NCBI RefSeq assembly: GCF_041886205.1
Contig: NZ_CP169029.1
Length of the DNA: 64,000 nt
From: Escherichia coli
GTDB taxonomy: Bacteria > Pseudomonadota > Gammaproteobacteria > Enterobacterales > Enterobacteriaceae
Direction: 5' to 3' (one strand)
Shown piece after piece: positions 10,799 to 17,108 of the stretch (the first letter of the stretch is position 1; each line of letters opens with the position of its first letter). The notes below the pieces were generated by a model. That model had not been told where the DNA came from. It worked only from the letters and a program-made list of their open reading frames with translations, and did not search any database. Made by a program: the position numbers and the translations under genes.

Positions 10799-11530
10799 AT
10801 GAAAAAAGTTCTGATTGCCGCGTTAATTGCAGGTTTTAGTCTTTCCGCCACAGCTGCCGAAACCATTCGTTTTGCTACCGAAGCCTCCTATCCTCCGTTT
10901 GAATCGATTGATGCAAACAACCAGATCGTTGGTTTTGACGTCGACCTGGCACAAGCGCTGTGTAAAGAGATTGATGCAACCTGCACTTTCTCTAACCAGG
11001 CGTTTGACAGCCTGATCCCAAGCCTGAAATTCCGTCGCGTAGAAGCAGTGATGGCGGGCATGGATATCACTCCGGAGCGTGAAAAGCAGGTGCTGTTTAC
11101 CACCCCGTACTATGACAACTCTGCCCTGTTTGTGGGTCAGCAAGGCAAATACACCAGTGTTGATCAGCTGAAAGGCAAAAAAGTCGGCGTGCAGAACGGG
11201 ACGACACACCAGAAATTCATTATGGATAAGCACCCGGAAATCACCACCGTTCCGTATGACAGCTACCAGAACGCAAAACTGGATCTGCAAAACGGGCGTA
11301 TCGACGGCGTCTTCGGTGACACCGCAGTGGTCACTGAGTGGCTGAAAGATAACCCGAAACTGGCGGCGGTGGGCGACAAAGTGACCGATAAAGATTACTT
11401 CGGCACTGGCCTCGGCATCGCGGTACGTCAGGGCAACACTGAGCTGCAGCAGAAACTCAACACTGCGCTGGAAAAAGTGAAGAAAGATGGCACTTACGAA
11501 ACCATCTACAACAAATGGTTCCAGAAGTAA
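10799..11530 (+). CDS. artI: Arginine-binding periplasmic protein ArtI
   Basis: 243-aa ORF with signal peptide; paralogous to artJ product in this window. Confidence 0.93.
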   Translation: MKKVLIAALIAGFSLSATAAETIRFATEASYPPFESIDANNQIVGFDVDLAQALCKEIDATCTFSNQAFDSLIPSLKFRRVEAVMAGMDITPEREKQVLFTTPYYDNSALFVGQQGKYTSVDQLKGKKVGVQNGTTHQKFIMDKHPEITTVPYDSYQNAKLDLQNGRIDGVFGDTAVVTEWLKDNPKLAAVGDKVTDKDYFGTGLGIAVRQGNTELQQKLNTALEKVKKDGTYETIYNKWFQK

Positions 11531-11536
11531 TTCCTG

Positions 11537-12253
11537 ATGAATGAATTTTTTCCTTTAGCAAGCGCCGCCGGGATGACCGTCGGCCTTGCCGTTTGTGCAT
11601 TGATTGTCGGGCTGGCGCTGGCGATGTTCTTTGCGGTATGGGAGTCTGCAAAATGGCGTCCTGTCGCGTGGGCAGGTTCAGCGCTGGTAACCATTCTGCG
11701 TGGCCTGCCAGAAATTCTGGTGGTGCTGTTTATCTATTTTGGCTCCTCGCAGCTGCTGCTGACGCTTTCGGATGGCTTCACTATCAATCTTGGGTTCGTG
11801 CAGATCCCGGTGCAGATGCAGATTGAGAACTTCGACGTTAGCCCGTTCCTTTGTGGTGTCATCGCTCTGTCACTGCTGTATGCCGCCTATGCCTCGCAAA
11901 CGCTGCGCGGTGCGCTGAAAGCGGTGCCGGTGGGCCAGTGGGAATCCGGACAGGCGCTGGGGCTGTCGAAATCGGCTATCTTTTTCCGTCTGGTGATGCC
12001 GCAGATGTGGCGTCATGCGCTGCCTGGCCTCGGTAACCAGTGGCTGGTGCTGCTGAAAGATACCGCGCTGGTCAGTTTGATAAGCGTGAATGATTTAATG
12101 CTACAAACCAAAAGCATCGCTACCCGTACCCAGGAACCATTTACCTGGTACATTGTGGCGGCGGCGATTTACCTGGTGATCACCCTGCTCAGTCAGTACA
12201 TTCTCAAACGCATTGACCTGCGCGCGACACGTTTTGAGCGGAGGCCCAGCTAA
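11537..12253 (+). CDS. artQ: Arginine ABC transporter permease ArtQ
   Basis: 238-aa hydrophobic ORF; operon position. Confidence 0.93.
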
Positions 12254-12921
12254 TGTTTGAGTATTTACCCGAACTGATGAAAGGGCTGCACACCAGCCTG
12301 ACGCTAACCGTTGCCTCGCTGATTGTGGCGCTGATTCTGGCATTGATTTTTACCATTATCCTGACGCTGAAAACGCCGGTGCTGGTGTGGCTGGTGCGGG
12401 GCTATATCACGCTGTTTACCGGTACGCCGCTGCTGGTGCAGATCTTCCTGATTTATTACGGGCCGGGCCAGTTCCCGACGTTGCAGGAGTATCCGGCACT
12501 GTGGCATTTGTTGTCAGAACCGTGGTTATGTGCGCTGATTGCGTTATCGCTGAACAGTGCGGCGTATACCACGCAGCTGTTTTACGGTGCAATTCGTGCG
12601 ATCCCAGAAGGTCAGTGGCAGTCCTGTAGCGCCCTGGGAATGAGCAAAAAAGATACGCTGGCGATCCTGCTGCCGTATGCCTTTAAACGCTCGCTCTCTT
12701 CTTATTCCAACGAAGTGGTGCTGGTGTTCAAAAGTACCTCTCTGGCTTACACCATTACGCTGATGGAAGTGATGGGATACAGCCAGTTGTTGTACGGACG
12801 CACCTACGATGTAATGGTGTTCGGTGCGGCAGGGATTATTTACCTGGTCGTCAACGGCCTGCTGACGCTGATGATGCGTCTGATCGAGCGCAAAGCACTG
12901 GCGTTTGAGCGAAGGAATTAA
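12253..12921 (+). CDS. artM: Arginine ABC transporter permease ArtM
   Basis: 222-aa hydrophobic ORF; TAATG stop/start overlap with artQ. Confidence 0.93.
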   Translation: MFEYLPELMKGLHTSLTLTVASLIVALILALIFTIILTLKTPVLVWLVRGYITLFTGTPLLVQIFLIYYGPGQFPTLQEYPALWHLLSEPWLCALIALSLNSAAYTTQLFYGAIRAIPEGQWQSCSALGMSKKDTLAILLPYAFKRSLSSYSNEVVLVFKSTSLAYTITLMEVMGYSQLLYGRTYDVMVFGAAGIIYLVVNGLLTLMMRLIERKALAFERRN

Positions 12922-12927
12922 TGTGGC

Positions 12928-12975
12928 TGCGTGCTGATGCCGGATGCGGCGTGAACGCCTTATCCGGCCTACATA
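12928..12975. repeat. REP (repetitive extragenic palindrome) element downstream of artM
   Basis: Sequence gatgccggatgcggcgtgaacgccttatccggcctaca matches the E. coli REP consensus family. Confidence 0.7.
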
Positions 12976-12995
12976 GTGCATAAATTCTTATAATG

Positions 12996-13032
12996 AAGAC
13001 GGGCAACCCAATAAGTTGTCCGTCTTTTTTTA
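12996..13032 (+). terminator. Rho-independent terminator of artPIQM
   Basis: 12-bp stem (aagacgggcaac / gttgtccgtctt, one mismatch) with 7-nt loop followed by TTTTTTTATTT. Confidence 0.7.
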
Positions 13033-13146
13033 TTTCATTTAAATTATTTAATCATATTTATTGCATATAAATTCACTTGGTGGCATTGTTATCCCATGCC
13101 GCAGACACGGCCAAAAATCATAAGATTGACAGACGGGAGTTCCATC

Positions 13147-13878
13147 ATGAAAAAGTTAGTTCTTGCCGCTTTACTTGCTTCCTTTACTTTCGGTGCTTCT
13201 GCCGCAGAGAAAATCAATTTTGGCGTTTCAGCCACCTATCCACCCTTTGAATCTATAGGTGCTAATAATGAGATTGTCGGCTTTGATATCGATCTGGCAA
13301 AAGCCTTGTGCAAACAAATGCAGGCAGAATGTACTTTTACTAATCACGCGTTCGACAGCCTGATCCCGTCACTGAAATTCAGAAAATATGACGCCGTAAT
13401 CTCCGGTATGGATATCACCCCGGAGCGTAGCAAACAGGTATCGTTTACCACGCCCTACTACGAAAACTCAGCCGTCGTGATTGCCAAAAAAGATACCTAC
13501 AAAACGTTTGCCGATCTGAAAGGCAAACGTATTGGGATGGAAAACGGCACCACGCACCAGAAATATATTCAGGATCAGCACCCCGAAGTGAAAACTGTCT
13601 CCTATGACAGTTATCAGAATGCCTTTATCGATCTGAAAAATGGCCGTATTGATGGGGTATTTGGTGACACAGCGGTGGTTAATGAATGGCTGAAAACCAA
13701 CCCGCAACTGGGCGTTGCGACTGAAAAAGTGACCGATCCGCAATACTTCGGCACCGGCCTGGGTATCGCTGTACGTCCGGATAACAAAGCTCTGCTGGAA
13801 AAACTGAATAACGCGCTGGCAGCAATTAAAGCTGACGGCACGTATCAGAAAATCAATGACCAGTGGTTCCCGCAATAA
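13147..13878 (+). CDS. artJ: Arginine-binding periplasmic protein ArtJ
   Basis: ORF trimmed to ATG at 13147 (243 aa); signal peptide; highly similar to ArtI. Confidence 0.93.
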   Translation: MKKLVLAALLASFTFGASAAEKINFGVSATYPPFESIGANNEIVGFDIDLAKALCKQMQAECTFTNHAFDSLIPSLKFRKYDAVISGMDITPERSKQVSFTTPYYENSAVVIAKKDTYKTFADLKGKRIGMENGTTHQKYIQDQHPEVKTVSYDSYQNAFIDLKNGRIDGVFGDTAVVNEWLKTNPQLGVATEKVTDPQYFGTGLGIAVRPDNKALLEKLNNALAAIKADGTYQKINDQWFPQ

Positions 13879-13888
13879 TTATTCATTT

Positions 13889-13916
13889 GCCGGAGTGGGC
13901 GAACCCCCACTCCGGC
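13889..13916. terminator. GC-rich stem-loop between convergent artJ and sulfatase gene (no U-tract on either strand)
   Basis: gccggagtggg / cccactccggc 11-bp perfect stem; located between two stop codons. Confidence 0.4.
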
Positions 13917-13928
13917 AAAATCACCTCT

Positions 13929-15410
13929 CTACACTAACCCCAGGCGCTGAAACTGCTCTGGCGGCGCATCATTGTCTTTCATCAACTGAATCAGCAACGC
14001 GATCATCCGGGCCTCGATCGCATCATCATGAATCGGATGCAGCTGCTGCGGATCGTTTTGCAGATCAAACAGCAAATGACCAAACTGATTCAGCCCCTTA
14101 TATTTCTCCTGTGCCGGGATGCGTAGCACCTTTAACCCTTTGGTGAAACGAAACGGTGGAGCCAGCGATAAAGCCCGCATCTCATCCACCGGATAGCGGC
14201 TGTTCATTTTGCAAGCCATTAAGGTGTAGTTAGCAATATCATCCTCACGCCCCGGCAGCGCGGCACGCATATACACATAACGCCCATCGGTTACGTTGAC
14301 ATGACCACTGAAGACACCAAATATAACCGCACTGCGTACCGGTTCATCGTGGCTGACCGTTTTCGCCAGCGGTTGCCCCTGCACATCGGGCGGCACCGGC
14401 TGCTGAAAAAAGTCATACAACGTAGGTGCCCAGTCGATCATCTGCACCAGCGCCTGACGCCGTTCGCCTTTTACACCGCTGCGCGGATCCCATATAAACA
14501 GCGGGTTATTCGCCACTTCGTTGTAATAAGGCATCTGGTTTTTCGCCCACCAGCCATGCTCACCAAGTAAAAAACCGTGGTCGGTGCCAACAATCAGCAT
14601 GGTGTCTCGCCACAGATCGTGCTCATCCATCAGGTCGAGAATGCGCCCCAGGTTACGATCGCACATCGATACCAGCGAGCGATATCGGCAGCGGATATGC
14701 TCCACGGCCTCGTCGCTTTCCTGAACCCTGCCACGTGGCCAGTCATAATACGGCCCGCTCCAGTCATCCTCATATAACGAAAGGTACTCTTCCGTTGTGT
14801 AAAACGGCTCGTGCGGATCAAACGTTTCGACCTGCAATAACCAGTTATCTTGCGCGTGGTTTTTGTGGATAAATGCACAACCCGCGTCAAAGACTTTGGT
14901 TTGGGGAAAATCCGCTTCCTGCTGAATATATTCCCGGTTGGCCCAGTCATGACGCCACAGGCCAGAAACACCGCCGCCGGTCTGCTTTTGCGGCTCCCGT
15001 AGCACCTCGGGAATAGGCGGTTGCGCAACGCTCGCCTGCCAGTGATCGCCTTCCTGGCCGCGCACAATCTCCCATGAACTGTAGCGATTATGGTAATTTC
15101 CGCCACCATCTTCCCAGTAATGCAAATGATCGCTTATCAGGTGGGTATAGATCCCCGCCTTTGTAAGCAGCTCCGGCATGGAGTCGTCAAACGGTTCTAA
15201 CGGCCCCCACTCCCGGTGCAGAAAATTGCATCGCCCGGTATGCAGCTCCCGTCGGGCGGGCATGCAGGGCATACTCCCGACGTAGCTGTTTTCAAAGGTG
15301 GCGGCATGTGCCGCCAGGCGTTGGAAGTTCTCTGCTTTTGTCAATAAGTCGCCATACGGGGGTAAATATCTTTTGTTCAGGCTATCGAACAGGAGAATAA
15401 TGGCTTTCAT
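13929..15410 (-). CDS. Cys-type (formylglycine) sulfatase family protein, predicted cytoplasmic (no signal peptide)
   Basis: 493-aa ORF; sulfatase signature C-x-P-x-R (SMPCMPARRELHTGR) at residues ~46-60; N-terminal LLFDSL..YG resembles sulfatase metal-binding start; last gene of PTS operon. Confidence 0.8.
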   Translation of the reverse strand: MKAIILLFDSLNKRYLPPYGDLLTKAENFQRLAAHAATFENSYVGSMPCMPARRELHTGRCNFLHREWGPLEPFDDSMPELLTKAGIYTHLISDHLHYWEDGGGNYHNRYSSWEIVRGQEGDHWQASVAQPPIPEVLREPQKQTGGGVSGLWRHDWANREYIQQEADFPQTKVFDAGCAFIHKNHAQDNWLLQVETFDPHEPFYTTEEYLSLYEDDWSGPYYDWPRGRVQESDEAVEHIRCRYRSLVSMCDRNLGRILDLMDEHDLWRDTMLIVGTDHGFLLGEHGWWAKNQMPYYNEVANNPLFIWDPRSGVKGERRQALVQMIDWAPTLYDFFQQPVPPDVQGQPLAKTVSHDEPVRSAVIFGVFSGHVNVTDGRYVYMRAALPGREDDIANYTLMACKMNSRYPVDEMRALSLAPPFRFTKGLKVLRIPAQEKYKGLNQFGHLLFDLQNDPQQLHPIHDDAIEARMIALLIQLMKDNDAPPEQFQRLGLV

Positions 15411-15422
15411 TGCTCATCCCTT

Positions 15423-15743
15423 TTATTTGTTTATCAGATAAGGGAAATGCTGTTGGACGACTTCATAAATCTGTGCACCAATCGTTTCACCATCCATAAT
15501 ATTTTCAATCGGGATCAGATATTGCCCGTGTTTCGGGTCCAGACTGACTACGTCGAGTAATTTTTTGGAAATAGCAAAAATATCTGCCCAGTCGGTAAAT
15601 CCTCCCACCTCACCTGCGGCAGTATGTTCCATTTCAACTTTGAACTCATATTTCGTCAGTGCTTTTTTAACGACCGTTTGTAACATCACGCTACTACCGA
15701 CACCATAACCACAGACAAACAGAATATTAATTGTATCTTTCAT
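15423..15743 (-). CDS. PTS EIIB component, L-ascorbate (UlaB/SgaB) family
   Basis: 106-aa ORF; N-terminal INILFVCGYGVGSS with phospho-accepting Cys in the position typical of UlaB-type EIIB. Confidence 0.8.
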   Translation of the reverse strand: MKDTINILFVCGYGVGSSVMLQTVVKKALTKYEFKVEMEHTAAGEVGGFTDWADIFAISKKLLDVVSLDPKHGQYLIPIENIMDGETIGAQIYEVVQQHFPYLINK

Positions 15744-15764: not shown

Positions 15765-17108
15765 TTATCCCGCGTAAGGACCAAGGTGGAATGTTGCAGC
15801 GATAAATTTCAGAACTTCACAAATAGCAGGCCATACAGTTGCCCAGTCAAATATTCCTGTCCAGCCGACGCCATTTTCAGCAAGCCCGGTTAACGGAATA
15901 GCCCACACCGTACCGAAGGTCTGAATAATACCCAGCAAGAAGGTACAGATAATTACGGAGCGGTATCCGCCCATGCGGTTTGCTAAAACGCCAATCGGGC
16001 CGCCTGAGAAAAATAACGGTACAAAGCCTGGCAATACCATAATGGGGCTGTGGATCAGTAATAAGATACCCATCGAGAAAATGGTGCCAAAAGTACAGAA
16101 GACAAAACCTAACGTTGCGGCTTTGGGTGAAAAAGGCAACAGCGCGGCGACATCGACGGCGGGAATGGCATTAGGAATAAAGCGATCCTGCCAGCCTTTA
16201 AAAGAACCGTTAATTTCACCGACCATCATGCGCACGCCCTGCAACAGAATGACCATGTACATGGAGAACTGTAAGCCCAGGTTGATAATATAGATGTACC
16301 AGGGTTTACCTTTTGCCATCATCTGAACGTTATCGATGCCCGTGGAGAGCAGGAACCCGCCAACAAACAGCGTCATCACAATGGCGATAGCCGTCACGTT
16401 GTGGTTAAAAATCGCCAGCCAGCCGGGGAGTTTCAGGTTTTCAGCATCGTGCTTTTCCGGGTCGCCAAATTTATGCGCGAATTTGGAGAAAAACCACAAA
16501 CCCAACATCTGGTTATGGGCAATGGTAAAACCGGCATCTTTGGTCACTTTGGCAATGGGTTTAGCAATGAGCGTGGTGGAAAAAGCCCAGAATATACCCG
16601 TTAATACCCCGGCGATAATAATCGATGTAGTCCAGCTAAATCCTAACCAAAAAACGATTAACCATAATACTGCCTGAGAATGTGACACACCGGTATTACC
16701 GGTCAGGAATATTCCTTTGGCACCGGTATAGCGACCAAACAGCACCAGTAAGAGGTTGGTAAAAAACGCCAGAACAAATACATAACCTACGTAACCAAAA
16801 TTATCCCCCAACGCAATTTGCGTTGCGGCTTTCATGGCGTAGGAATCCATTAAATAACCGTGAACGCCATAGGCTTTACTTACCGCTTCTGCCACCGGTT
16901 TAAAGGTTGCGGAAAACTGAAAACCACCAAATAGCACCATCATTAATCCCACCATGGCACTGACCATACCGGTGATTATTTTGATGGGCGATTTTTTATC
17001 GAGGGCATAACCAATGCCCACCAGCAAACCAATTAATATTGCGGGTTCGGTTAAAAACGTTTGAATAACATCTATGAATTTGGCAAACATCGTCGGAACG
17101 CCCTCCAT
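15765..17108 (-). CDS. PTS EIIC permease, L-ascorbate (UlaA/SgaT) family
   Basis: 447-aa polytopic membrane ORF immediately upstream of the EIIB gene; length and hydrophobic profile typical of UlaA-like EIIC; start could be ATG at 17108 or ATG 18 nt downstream. Confidence 0.8.
   Translation of the reverse strand: MEGVPTMFAKFIDVIQTFLTEPAILIGLLVGIGYALDKKSPIKIITGMVSAMVGLMMVLFGGFQFSATFKPVAEAVSKAYGVHGYLMDSYAMKAATQIALGDNFGYVGYVFVLAFFTNLLLVLFGRYTGAKGIFLTGNTGVSHSQAVLWLIVFWLGFSWTTSIIIAGVLTGIFWAFSTTLIAKPIAKVTKDAGFTIAHNQMLGLWFFSKFAHKFGDPEKHDAENLKLPGWLAIFNHNVTAIAIVMTLFVGGFLLSTGIDNVQMMAKGKPWYIYIINLGLQFSMYMVILLQGVRMMVGEINGSFKGWQDRFIPNAIPAVDVAALLPFSPKAATLGFVFCTFGTIFSMGILLLIHSPIMVLPGFVPLFFSGGPIGVLANRMGGYRSVIICTFLLGIIQTFGTVWAIPLTGLAENGVGWTGIFDWATVWPAICEVLKFIAATFHLGPYAG

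Follow-up and report, generated by a model that had tools for sequence, protein, structure and literature searches.

We found that the window, that is, the whole stretch of 64,000 nucleotides that was analysed, is E. coli chromosome and that it very probably contains the artPIQM-artJ locus of this species, made up of one operon and of artJ, a separately transcribed paralogue of artI within the Enterobacterales. This identification is based on a 5-kb match of 100% identity to annotated E. coli genomes (strain wlxctx60 is identical over the whole 5 kb) and on the observation that all five products scored above their own NCBIfam equivalog cut-offs. At least 80% of the 5-kb query was present in 5,419 of 5,426 genomes. 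Apart from the survey of pocket signatures reported below, the findings on the locus are already published, including the paralogy of its binding proteins, its division into two transcription units and its ArgR operators; as a discovery the result is of small value, since features of the art locus were described between 1993 and 2019. The K-12 art locus was reportedly treated by Wissenbach et al. in 1993 and 1995 and by Caldara et al. in 2007.

Gene content and comparison with K-12

The genes artP, artI, artQ, artM and artJ follow each other in this order on one strand, and the features of the locus are the following.

9959..9997, + strand: artP operator, a pair of ARG boxes of 18 bp each at 9959-9976 and 9980-9997, 3 bp apart; second-best tandem pair, 6 mismatches
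10053..10781, + strand: artP, ATP-binding subunit (RefSeq annotation of a 100%-identical genome; NCBIfam ArtP equivalog 502.7 bits, cut-off 369)
10799..11530, + strand: artI, in-operon periplasmic binding protein with ancestral-type pocket Glu28/Gln132 (ArtI equivalog 536.9, cut-off 522; Pfam SBP_bac_3)
11537..12253, + strand: artQ, permease (RefSeq annotation; NCBIfam equivalog 467 bits, cut-off 277)
12253..12921, + strand: artM, permease (RefSeq annotation; NCBIfam equivalog 423.6 bits, cut-off 248)
12929..12969, no strand assigned: single REP element (matches naRNA4, an Rfam family derived from REP, below threshold; hairpin in the fold)
12995..13034, + strand: strong intrinsic terminator at the end of artPIQM, with a stem of 13 bp and a T run after it (terminator scan)
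13039..13077, + strand: artJ operator, the best tandem pair of the window, made up of ARG boxes at 13039-13056 and 13060-13077, 3 bp apart
13061..13089, + strand: predicted sigma-70 promoter of artJ
13147..13878, + strand: artJ, arginine-binding protein with derived pocket Ser28/Glu132 (RefSeq annotation; ArtJ equivalog 534.5, cut-off 510)

The stop codon of artQ and the start codon of artM overlap by 1 nt (TAATG). Both artI and artJ are 243-codon open reading frames on the + strand. The mechanical reading frame of artJ opens at 13096, but annotation places the start at the ATG at 13147, which follows a Shine-Dalgarno sequence, GGGAG, at 13135-13139. The preliminary description had named the two binding-protein genes artI and artJ and had placed them on either side of the permease genes. 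Both statements are correct: artQ and artM lie between them, and each product passes solely its own NCBIfam model, the cross-scores (386-398) being below both cut-offs. Minus-strand reading frames over artP, artI, artM and artJ were discarded as mechanical by-products; they are unannotated in all matched genomes.

The corresponding locus of E. coli K-12 (artPIQM-artJ, b0864-b0860; Torres Montaguth et al., 2019, PMC6640053) has the same five genes in the same order. ArtP, ArtI and ArtM are identical to those of K-12, whereas ArtQ and ArtJ are one residue off each (N237S in ArtJ). At the DNA level, artQ, artM and artJ diverge from K-12 by 2.4-3.4% and artP and artI by 0.3-0.4%. The artP operator is identical, and that of artJ has one different base, in the distal box. 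The artM-artJ spacer is 66 bp shorter here; on our reading, the approximately 66 bp of additional spacer in K-12 may represent a second hairpin-forming, REP-like stretch. The chromosomal synteny of K-12 is maintained (ybjP upstream, the rlmC side downstream) with two strain-specific insertions beside the art locus, a sulfatase/PTS cluster 3' of artJ and, upstream of ybjP, a pentapeptide-repeat gene of low GC content.

Control regions of artPIQM and artJ

The fold of the region 12922-13040 gave -45.3 kcal/mol (z = -5.4 with respect to shuffles). The REP element lies within it. The number of places matched by the 5-kb query in an E. coli genome had a median of 35, which also points to a repetitive element. 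An Rfam scan of positions 9000-14500 at a permissive threshold returned the sub-threshold naRNA4 match and chance-level matches to CRISPR-DR53, L20 leader and Cgb105 only; known regulatory RNAs are absent from this interval. The terminator at 12995-13034, followed by the operator and predicted promoter at 13039-13089, fits two predicted transcription units, artPIQM and artJ, as published for K-12 (PMC6640053, PMC2228313). artPIQM would be transcribed as one operon and artJ, downstream of the REP element and the terminator, from a sigma-70 promoter of its own.

The preliminary description had attributed to artJ a control region of its own, with candidate ArgR boxes around 13040-13100, and had regarded this arrangement as known, which it is (PMC6640053). 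When the window was scanned for ARG boxes, the pairs upstream of artJ and artP were the two best tandem pairs in 64 kb (5 and 6 mismatches, respectively, both with a 3-bp spacer), as compared to 7 mismatches for the best pair in 100 Markov-shuffled windows. The artJ boxes read TTAAATTATTTAATCATA ttt ATTGCATATAAATTCACT, with 4 and 1 mismatches to the 18-bp consensus. The boxes are therefore real, although they are confined to 13039-13077; the remaining 13078-13100 more probably contains the -10 element and the transcription start of artJ. Single boxes with up to 3 mismatches were not enriched overall (12 found vs. 9.1 expected); the tandem-pair criterion alone discriminates. The pair upstream of artJ was conserved in 49 of the 50 species with artJ after artM among the loci listed, and the cross-species pairs had 3-8 mismatches as compared to a shuffled mean of 10-13. 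The proximal box of artP, ATTGCATAAnTATTCTGT, is conserved across Enterobacterales.

The putative artP promoter has its -35 element (TTGCAT, 9981-9986) inside this proximal box and its -10 element (TACTAT) at 10004-10009. For artJ we predict a -35 element TTGCAT at 13061-13066 and a -10 element CATTGT at 13084-13089, with a 17-bp spacer carrying TGg. This assignment was made by comparison with the artP promoter and from the published statement that, in the two promoters, the overlap of ARG boxes and -35 element is equally large (PMC6640053). A consensus promoter scan gave results at or below shuffle expectation and did not detect the artJ promoter. Its candidate for artP, TTAACT-18-CATAAT, was rejected because it lies too far upstream with respect to the published overlap of boxes and -35 element.

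Since an ARG-box pair overlaps each promoter, arginine-loaded ArgR hexamers would shut off both artPIQM and artJ. In K-12, binding of ArgR and Lrp to the artP region has been demonstrated (PMC6640053), and for the K-12 operators, that of artJ included, arginine-dependent ArgR binding with repression in vivo is attributed to Caldara 2007 in the same article. ArgR represses both artJ and artPIQM, whereas Lrp acts on artP only (PMC6640053); according to published K-12 work, repression by ArgR is about ninefold weaker for artPIQM than for artJ. The art genes are not named in the GcvB regulon paper.

Ligand pockets of ArtI and ArtJ

That ArtI and ArtJ are paralogous, as had been proposed from comparison of their translations, was confirmed by BLASTP, which gave 156 identical residues out of 241 (65%), 81% positives, no gaps and E = 2e-125. 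The peptides AFDSLIPSLKF and GMDITPER, quoted in support of that proposal, start at residues 68 and 87 in both proteins, and the longest common run is NGRIDGVFGDTAVV (14 aa). PF00497 (SBP_bac_3, the domain of family 3 solute-binding proteins, which bind polar amino acids) covers residues 23-242 with 139.7 bits in ArtI and 145.9 bits in ArtJ. Both N-termini consist of MKK and a hydrophobic stretch, closed before residue 20 by a site of the Ala-x-Ala type (TAA/SAA), and were judged by eye to be signal peptides. The operon is expected to encode the ABC importer ArtQMP2 together with its in-operon substrate-binding protein, ArtI, and both binding proteins would presumably dock on the same ArtQM permease; sharing of ArtQMP2 by the two is called "supposed" in PMC6640053.

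The pockets differ at positions 28 and 132, occupied by Ser and Glu in ArtJ and by Glu and Gln in ArtI. The Ser/Glu signature (positions of LAO D11 and L117; 28 and 132 of ArtJ) was derived in this analysis and is not a curated definition; the roles of the two residues are taken from alignment to HisJ/LAO and from statements about Tv2483 E128. Among the loci listed, Glu28 was found in 91 of 95 in-operon copies and Gln132 in all 95, whereas 45 of the 46 copies located after artM had Ser28/Glu132. The closest solved structure, STM4351 of Salmonella (PDB 2y7i; E = 1e-93 for ArtJ and 2e-82 for ArtI), is that of an arginine-specific periplasmic binding protein and has in common with ArtJ the Ser/Glu pair at the aligned positions; Coxiella 3tql is of the Glu/Gln type, as ArtI. 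STM4351 is a third paralogue, outside the art locus, with a reported Kd for arginine of only 2.9 uM. ArtJ is very probably the high-affinity, arginine-specific receptor.

Because it has Glu28/Gln132, ArtI was not assigned to the ArtJ-type arginine-specific receptors; it may bind arginine in another mode. With its ancestral pocket, ArtI probably recognises a cationic amino acid differently, and its ligand could be arginine/ornithine at lower affinity or some other compound. The alternative of functional redundancy, implied by the title of the preliminary description, in which ArtI and ArtJ would both serve as arginine receptors and differ in regulation only, appears rather unlikely. RefSeq/PGAP names both proteins "arginine ABC transporter substrate-binding protein", the ligands of ArtI are arginine and ornithine according to PMC6640053 and also PMC8050422, and the backbone-binding residues (Arg94, Asp89, Thr135/Thr136 and Asp174) are common to both, all of which would agree with redundancy. 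However, ArtI is a "putative ABC transporter periplasmic binding protein" in the K-12 RefSeq entry and, in PMC2228313, the original assays are summarised as showing no specific binding of arginine by ArtI, whose affinity for arginine was tenfold below that of ArtJ and did not exceed its affinity for other amino acids. Moreover, the 28/132 pair is switched between the two lineages and fixed within each, and the weaker repression of artPIQM by ArgR, together with its control by Lrp, also speaks against redundancy. The label "arginine-binding", which the preliminary description gave to both proteins, exceeds the evidence in the case of ArtI, for which it is based on annotation and on conflicting secondary citations.

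A further reading, likewise rather unlikely, is that ArtI is no second arginine receptor but has a physiological ligand different from L-arginine or a clearly distinct specificity, in which case the lineage-fixed acidic swap at 28/132 would be a post-duplication specificity switch. If this is true, ArtQMP2 of Enterobacterales would carry two substrates under partly different control, with artPIQM controlled by ArgR and Lrp and artJ by ArgR alone. The 28/132 signature splits ArtI-type from ArtJ-type proteins over about 140 sequences among the loci listed and could guide a binding experiment on the contradictory ArtI literature.

Age and origin of the artI and artJ copies

The distribution of artJ was analysed in a comparative sample of at least 120 stretches, biased by the requirement that each locus contain the peptide FDSLIPSLKF; species and orthologue counts refer to the loci listed. 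Among these, the order P-I-Q-M-J was found in Enterobacteriaceae, Pantoea/Mixta, Serratia/Rahnella/Yersinia thracica and Hafnia/Edwardsiella, and P-I-Q-M only in Morganellaceae, Aeromonas, Moritella, Zobellella and Oceanisphaera; some genomes of Erwinia and Rouxiella also lacked artJ. In Budvicia, a gene of the ArtJ type occurs with no artPIQM in its vicinity. In a neighbour-joining tree (about 240 columns, 200 bootstraps; Aeromonas, Moritella and Zobellella as outgroup), the copies after artM formed a single clade in 189/200 bootstraps and the outgroup was split off in 200/200. The same tree recovered monophyly of enterobacterial ArtI in only 5/200 bootstraps, so that it does not tell whether Morganellaceae lost artJ or the gene arose later.

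We conclude that artJ very probably arose within Enterobacterales, by a duplication of artI that postdates their divergence from the lineages of Aeromonas and Moritella. That artJ is instead a xenologue, inserted horizontally downstream of artM, is very improbable. Its GC content, slightly below that of artI (46.0% vs. 50.4%), its absence from Morganellaceae and from the Erwinia and Rouxiella genomes mentioned above, and the isolated gene of Budvicia would fit such an insertion. Nevertheless, ArtJ is closer to enterobacterial ArtI (62-68% identity) than to the outgroup proteins (52-56%), its clade joins enterobacterial ArtI in the tree, and across families artJ has kept both its place and its ARG-box operator.

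The duplication of artI is old and not recent, because identity at third codon positions is only 46% and because the artJ clade spans several families of Enterobacterales. A recent tandem duplication, or homogenisation by gene conversion, which would derive the several identical peptide runs of 7-14 residues and the gapless alignment from recently shared DNA, is extremely improbable, given that nucleotide identity is 68% overall and 44% where sites are four-fold degenerate, no identical stretch of DNA exceeds 14 nt, identity in sliding windows of 60 nt ranges from 52% to 77% without any conversion tract, orthologues of artI and artJ are conserved separately across families, and the identical peptides lie in conserved fold motifs (GMDITPER aligns to HisJ residues 70-77 and NGTTHQK to HisJ 119-123) and are thus explained by purifying selection. 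As to the duplication inferred previously, the copies are indeed paralogous but, with artQ and artM between them, not strictly tandem. Instead of tandem, arginine-binding duplicates, artI and artJ should be described as paralogues that are old and dispersed, the ligand of one of them being unsettled.

A similar arrangement is known in argT-hisJQMP of E. coli and Salmonella, in which, as in art, two paralogous binding proteins with about 70% identity share a single ABC translocator, HisQMP2, and one binding-protein copy has its own promoter and a different regulation (PMC6640053). Unlike in art, the genes of both binding proteins lie side by side, upstream of those for the permease, and argT, unlike artJ, is sigma-54/NtrC dependent and free of ArgR control. 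With the models of HisJ and ArgT, ArtI and ArtJ reached scores of only 157-178 bits.

Gene content and paralogy of ArtI and ArtJ

The 5-kb stretch at 9500-14500 matched the chromosome of E. coli strain wlxctx60 with 100% identity, and at least 80% of it was found in 5,419 of 5,426 complete E. coli genomes. Gene coordinates are those of the RefSeq annotation of the identical record, transferred to the window numbering, and each of the five art products passed its own NCBIfam equivalog cut-off:

9320-9835, + strand, ybjP
10053-10781, + strand, artP
10799-11530, + strand, artI
11537-12253, + strand, artQ
12253-12921, + strand, artM
13147-13878, + strand, artJ

ArtI scored 536.9 bits (cut-off 522) and ArtJ 534.5 bits (cut-off 510), and the cross-scores of 386-398 bits each lay below the other's NCBIfam cut-off. 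ArtP, ArtI and ArtM were identical to the K-12 MG1655 proteins; ArtQ and ArtJ differed by one residue each. The region is the artPIQM-artJ locus as already published, with no departure from known biology. Since artI and artJ bracket artQ and artM, they had been correctly described as flanking the permease genes.

ArtI and ArtJ, both of 243 aa, aligned without gaps, with 156/241 identical residues (65%), 81% positives and E = 2e-125. They are clearly paralogous, as the preliminary description had it, and formal alignment did not give the low identity that would speak against this. The peptides it had quoted, AFDSLIPSLKF and GMDITPER, are common to both proteins at residues 68 and 87, respectively, and the longest identical run is NGRIDGVFGDTAVV. 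The observation is thus confirmed and its interpretation largely right, with three corrections, one of which concerns the term tandem duplication. The amino acid identity bears out a duplication, but a recent tandem event is ruled out by the DNA identity (68%), the third-position identity (46%, as compared to 76% and 82% at positions 1 and 2) and the longest identical DNA run of 14 nt. Four-fold degenerate sites were 44% identical; the duplication is old, with synonymous sites near saturation. A gene conversion tract is ruled out as well, because a sliding comparison of the gene pair revealed no stretch of raised identity.

Tandem ARG boxes and the artM-artJ spacer

artM and artJ are separated by 225 bp, in which a REP element is followed by an intrinsic terminator and then by two ARG boxes. 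A scan of the window found a box pair upstream of artJ and another upstream of artP:

9959-9997, artP ARG-box pair, 6 mismatches
12929-12969, REP element, sub-threshold match to the REP-derived Rfam family naRNA4
12995-13027, intrinsic terminator from a terminator scan, 13-bp stem followed by a T run
13039-13077, artJ ARG boxes, TTAAATTATTTAATCATA ttt ATTGCATATAAATTCACT, 2 x 18 bp with a 3-bp gap, 5 mismatches

These are the two best tandem pairs in all 64 kb, and in 100 Markov-shuffled windows the best pair never had fewer than 7 mismatches. Tandem pairs are therefore discriminating, whereas single boxes are not enriched within the 64-kb window (12 found vs. 9.1 expected). The ArgR boxes previously placed at about 13040..13100 are thus a real pair, but of smaller extent. 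The artP control region equals that of K-12 throughout the boxes; in the artJ region one base differs in the distal box and one just downstream.

Among the matches listed in our survey of other species, 49 of 50 with artJ after artM had a best spacer pair with 3-8 mismatches (10-13 when shuffled), and the artJ pairs lay about 85-170 bp 5' of the start codon. The proximal artJ box, ATTGCATATAAATTCAYT, hardly varies across the range from Escherichia to Yersinia, Hafnia and Pantoea, and the proximal artP box, ATTGCATAAnTATTCTGT, is conserved to a similar degree. At the level of sequence, this conservation is independent support for the predicted artJ boxes.

In K-12, operon structure, ArgR binding, repression and high-affinity arginine binding by ArtJ have been demonstrated. 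ArgR binding at two ARG boxes in both control regions is attributed to Caldara 2007 in PMC6640053. According to the same sources, the boxes overlap the -35 elements, RNA polymerase is sterically excluded at PartJ, repression of artJ is about ninefold stronger than that of artPIQM, and Lrp exerts additional control on artP only. A putative -35 element, TTGCAT, lies within the proximal box of artP and artJ alike, and the candidate -10 elements are TACTAT for artP and TGg + CATTGT for artJ. Most likely, the artPIQM operon encodes the importer, ArtQMP2, together with one receptor for it, and artJ a second, separately expressed receptor that is shut off more tightly by arginine-loaded ArgR. Docking of both receptors on ArtQM is assumed in the literature (PMC6640053); we infer the sharing of the translocator, as well as the ArtI ligand. 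The closest parallel is argT-hisJQMP: its two binding proteins, about 70% identical, work with a single translocator and, as here, one of the two has its own regulation.

The longest artJ ORF begins at an ATG at 13096, 51 nt 5' of the annotated start, and would add MPQTRPKIIRLTDGSSI. This ATG is probably at or before the transcription start. The annotated ATG (13147) follows a Shine-Dalgarno sequence, GGGAG, at a distance of 7 nt and opens a typical signal peptide.

Distribution of artJ and the binding-pocket signature

One genome per species was scanned for a degenerate DNA pattern that encodes FDSLIPSLKF, which yielded at least 120 stretches, or at least 110 loci once adjacent chunks were joined; the choice of pattern biases the sample, and counts hold among the matches listed. 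Among these, the order P-I-Q-M-J was seen throughout the Enterobacteriaceae genera sampled, wherever the locus extended beyond artM, and also in Pantoea, Mixta, Serratia, Rahnella, Yersinia thracica, Hafnia and Edwardsiella. P-I-Q-M only, called with at least 1.3 kb read 3' of artM, was found among the listed matches in Photorhabdus, Xenorhabdus, Proteus, Moellerella, Acerihabitans, Rouxiella and Erwinia endophytica within Enterobacterales, and in Aeromonas, Moritella, Zobellella, Oceanisphaera and Endozoicomonas from other orders.

Neighbour joining of 145 binding proteins from the listed matches placed the after-artM copies in one clade (189/200 bootstraps) and separated off the non-enterobacterial proteins in 200/200. 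The single Aeromonas and Moritella proteins were equidistant from E. coli ArtI and ArtJ (53-56% identity). The simplest reading is that artJ would be a duplicate of the in-operon gene, arisen within Enterobacterales, in agreement with a published survey of gene order, in which artI was present in Pasteurellaceae and artJ was confined to enterobacteria (PMC2228313). For Morganellaceae, the tree is compatible both with loss of artJ and with branching before its origin.

Both proteins had been called arginine-binding; this holds for ArtJ, on the K-12 evidence of high affinity, and is too confident for ArtI, whose record is mixed. PGAP names ArtI an arginine-binding protein, as compared to the curated K-12 name "putative ABC transporter periplasmic binding protein". 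The abstract of Wissenbach's 1995 study reportedly gave its substrate as "not known". ArtI is stated to bind arginine and ornithine in PMC6640053 and PMC8050422, both citing Wissenbach 1993/1995, and, in PMC2228313 citing Wissenbach 1995, to bind arginine with tenfold lower affinity than ArtJ and no better than other amino acids.

The pocket pair is Ser28/Glu132 in ArtJ and Glu28/Gln132 in ArtI, the positions being set by alignment to the ligand-contacting D11 and L117 of HisJ/LAO. D11 is a ligand contact in the LAO structures. L117 is a contact in the literature, where a guanidinium-binding Glu replaces it in the arginine-specific Tv2483. Among the matches listed, in-operon copies, including single-copy outgroups, carried Glu28 in 91/95 and Gln132 in 95/95, and after-artM copies Ser28/Glu132 in 45/46. 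The ArtJ pair recurs in the arginine-specific STM4351 (PDB 2y7i), the ArtI pair in 3tql from Coxiella. In the ArtJ lineage the acidic residue thus changed its place in the pocket, each state being held fixed thereafter, which argues for subfunctionalisation rather than redundancy, whatever the ArtI ligand may be. This signature survey is the only new item, the rest being already known, and represents a modest lead toward settling the ArtI ligand.

Three loci stood apart. In Erwinia mallotivora, the gene after artM encodes a binding protein that has diverged (52% identity to ArtI and to ArtJ), with Thr/Gly instead of Ser/Glu in the pocket and no ARG-box pair upstream (16 mismatches); the paralogue has either been replaced or evolves fast. 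In Budvicia aquatica, a gene of the ArtJ type (68% identity, Ser/Glu signature) stands alone, its 10-kb locus containing neither artP nor artQ nor artM. In a Thermoplasmatales archaeon MAG, the 30-nt pattern matched a locus without an art-like gene, consistent with the 1-2 or so chance matches estimated for a scan of such size.

Differences from K-12 in and around the locus

Differences from K-12 are minor: a shorter spacer, mosaic DNA divergence and strain-specific flanking genes:

6902-8704, - strand, pentapeptide-repeat protein gene (600 aa), between ybjP and ybjQ
13929-15410, - strand, sulfatase gene, between artJ and rlmC
15423-15743, - strand, PTS IIB gene, between artJ and rlmC
15765-17108, - strand, PTS IIC gene, between artJ and rlmC

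The spacer is 66 bp shorter here because a K-12 insert is missing: K-12 (at about 4800-4866 of the sequence compared, against window 12922-12935) has about 66 extra bases between artM and the common REP, which we read as a second hairpin-forming, REP-like stretch. A 65-bp longer allele also occurs in other E. coli genomes, and the length variation is a REP-associated copy-number polymorphism. The REP element is also the reason why the 5-kb query matched a median of 35 places per E. coli genome; together with the terminator, it folds at -45.3 kcal/mol (z = -5.4).

Across 10053-13878, DNA identity to K-12 was 99.6-99.7% for artP and artI and 96.6-97.6% for artQ, artM and artJ, so that divergence rises about tenfold inside the locus. 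Such a rise suggests recombination with a breakpoint close to where artI meets artQ, perhaps connected with the nearby sulfatase/PTS block, a strain-variable insertion just 3' of artJ, since artJ adjoins rlmC in K-12. On the other side, ybjP and ybjQ are adjacent in K-12 with nothing between. The block around the pentapeptide-repeat gene (about 6900-9000) has 30-34% GC, as compared to about 50% for the window, and has the look of an island gained by horizontal transfer; the product of the gene may resemble pentapeptide-repeat type III effectors (EspX/PipB2-like).
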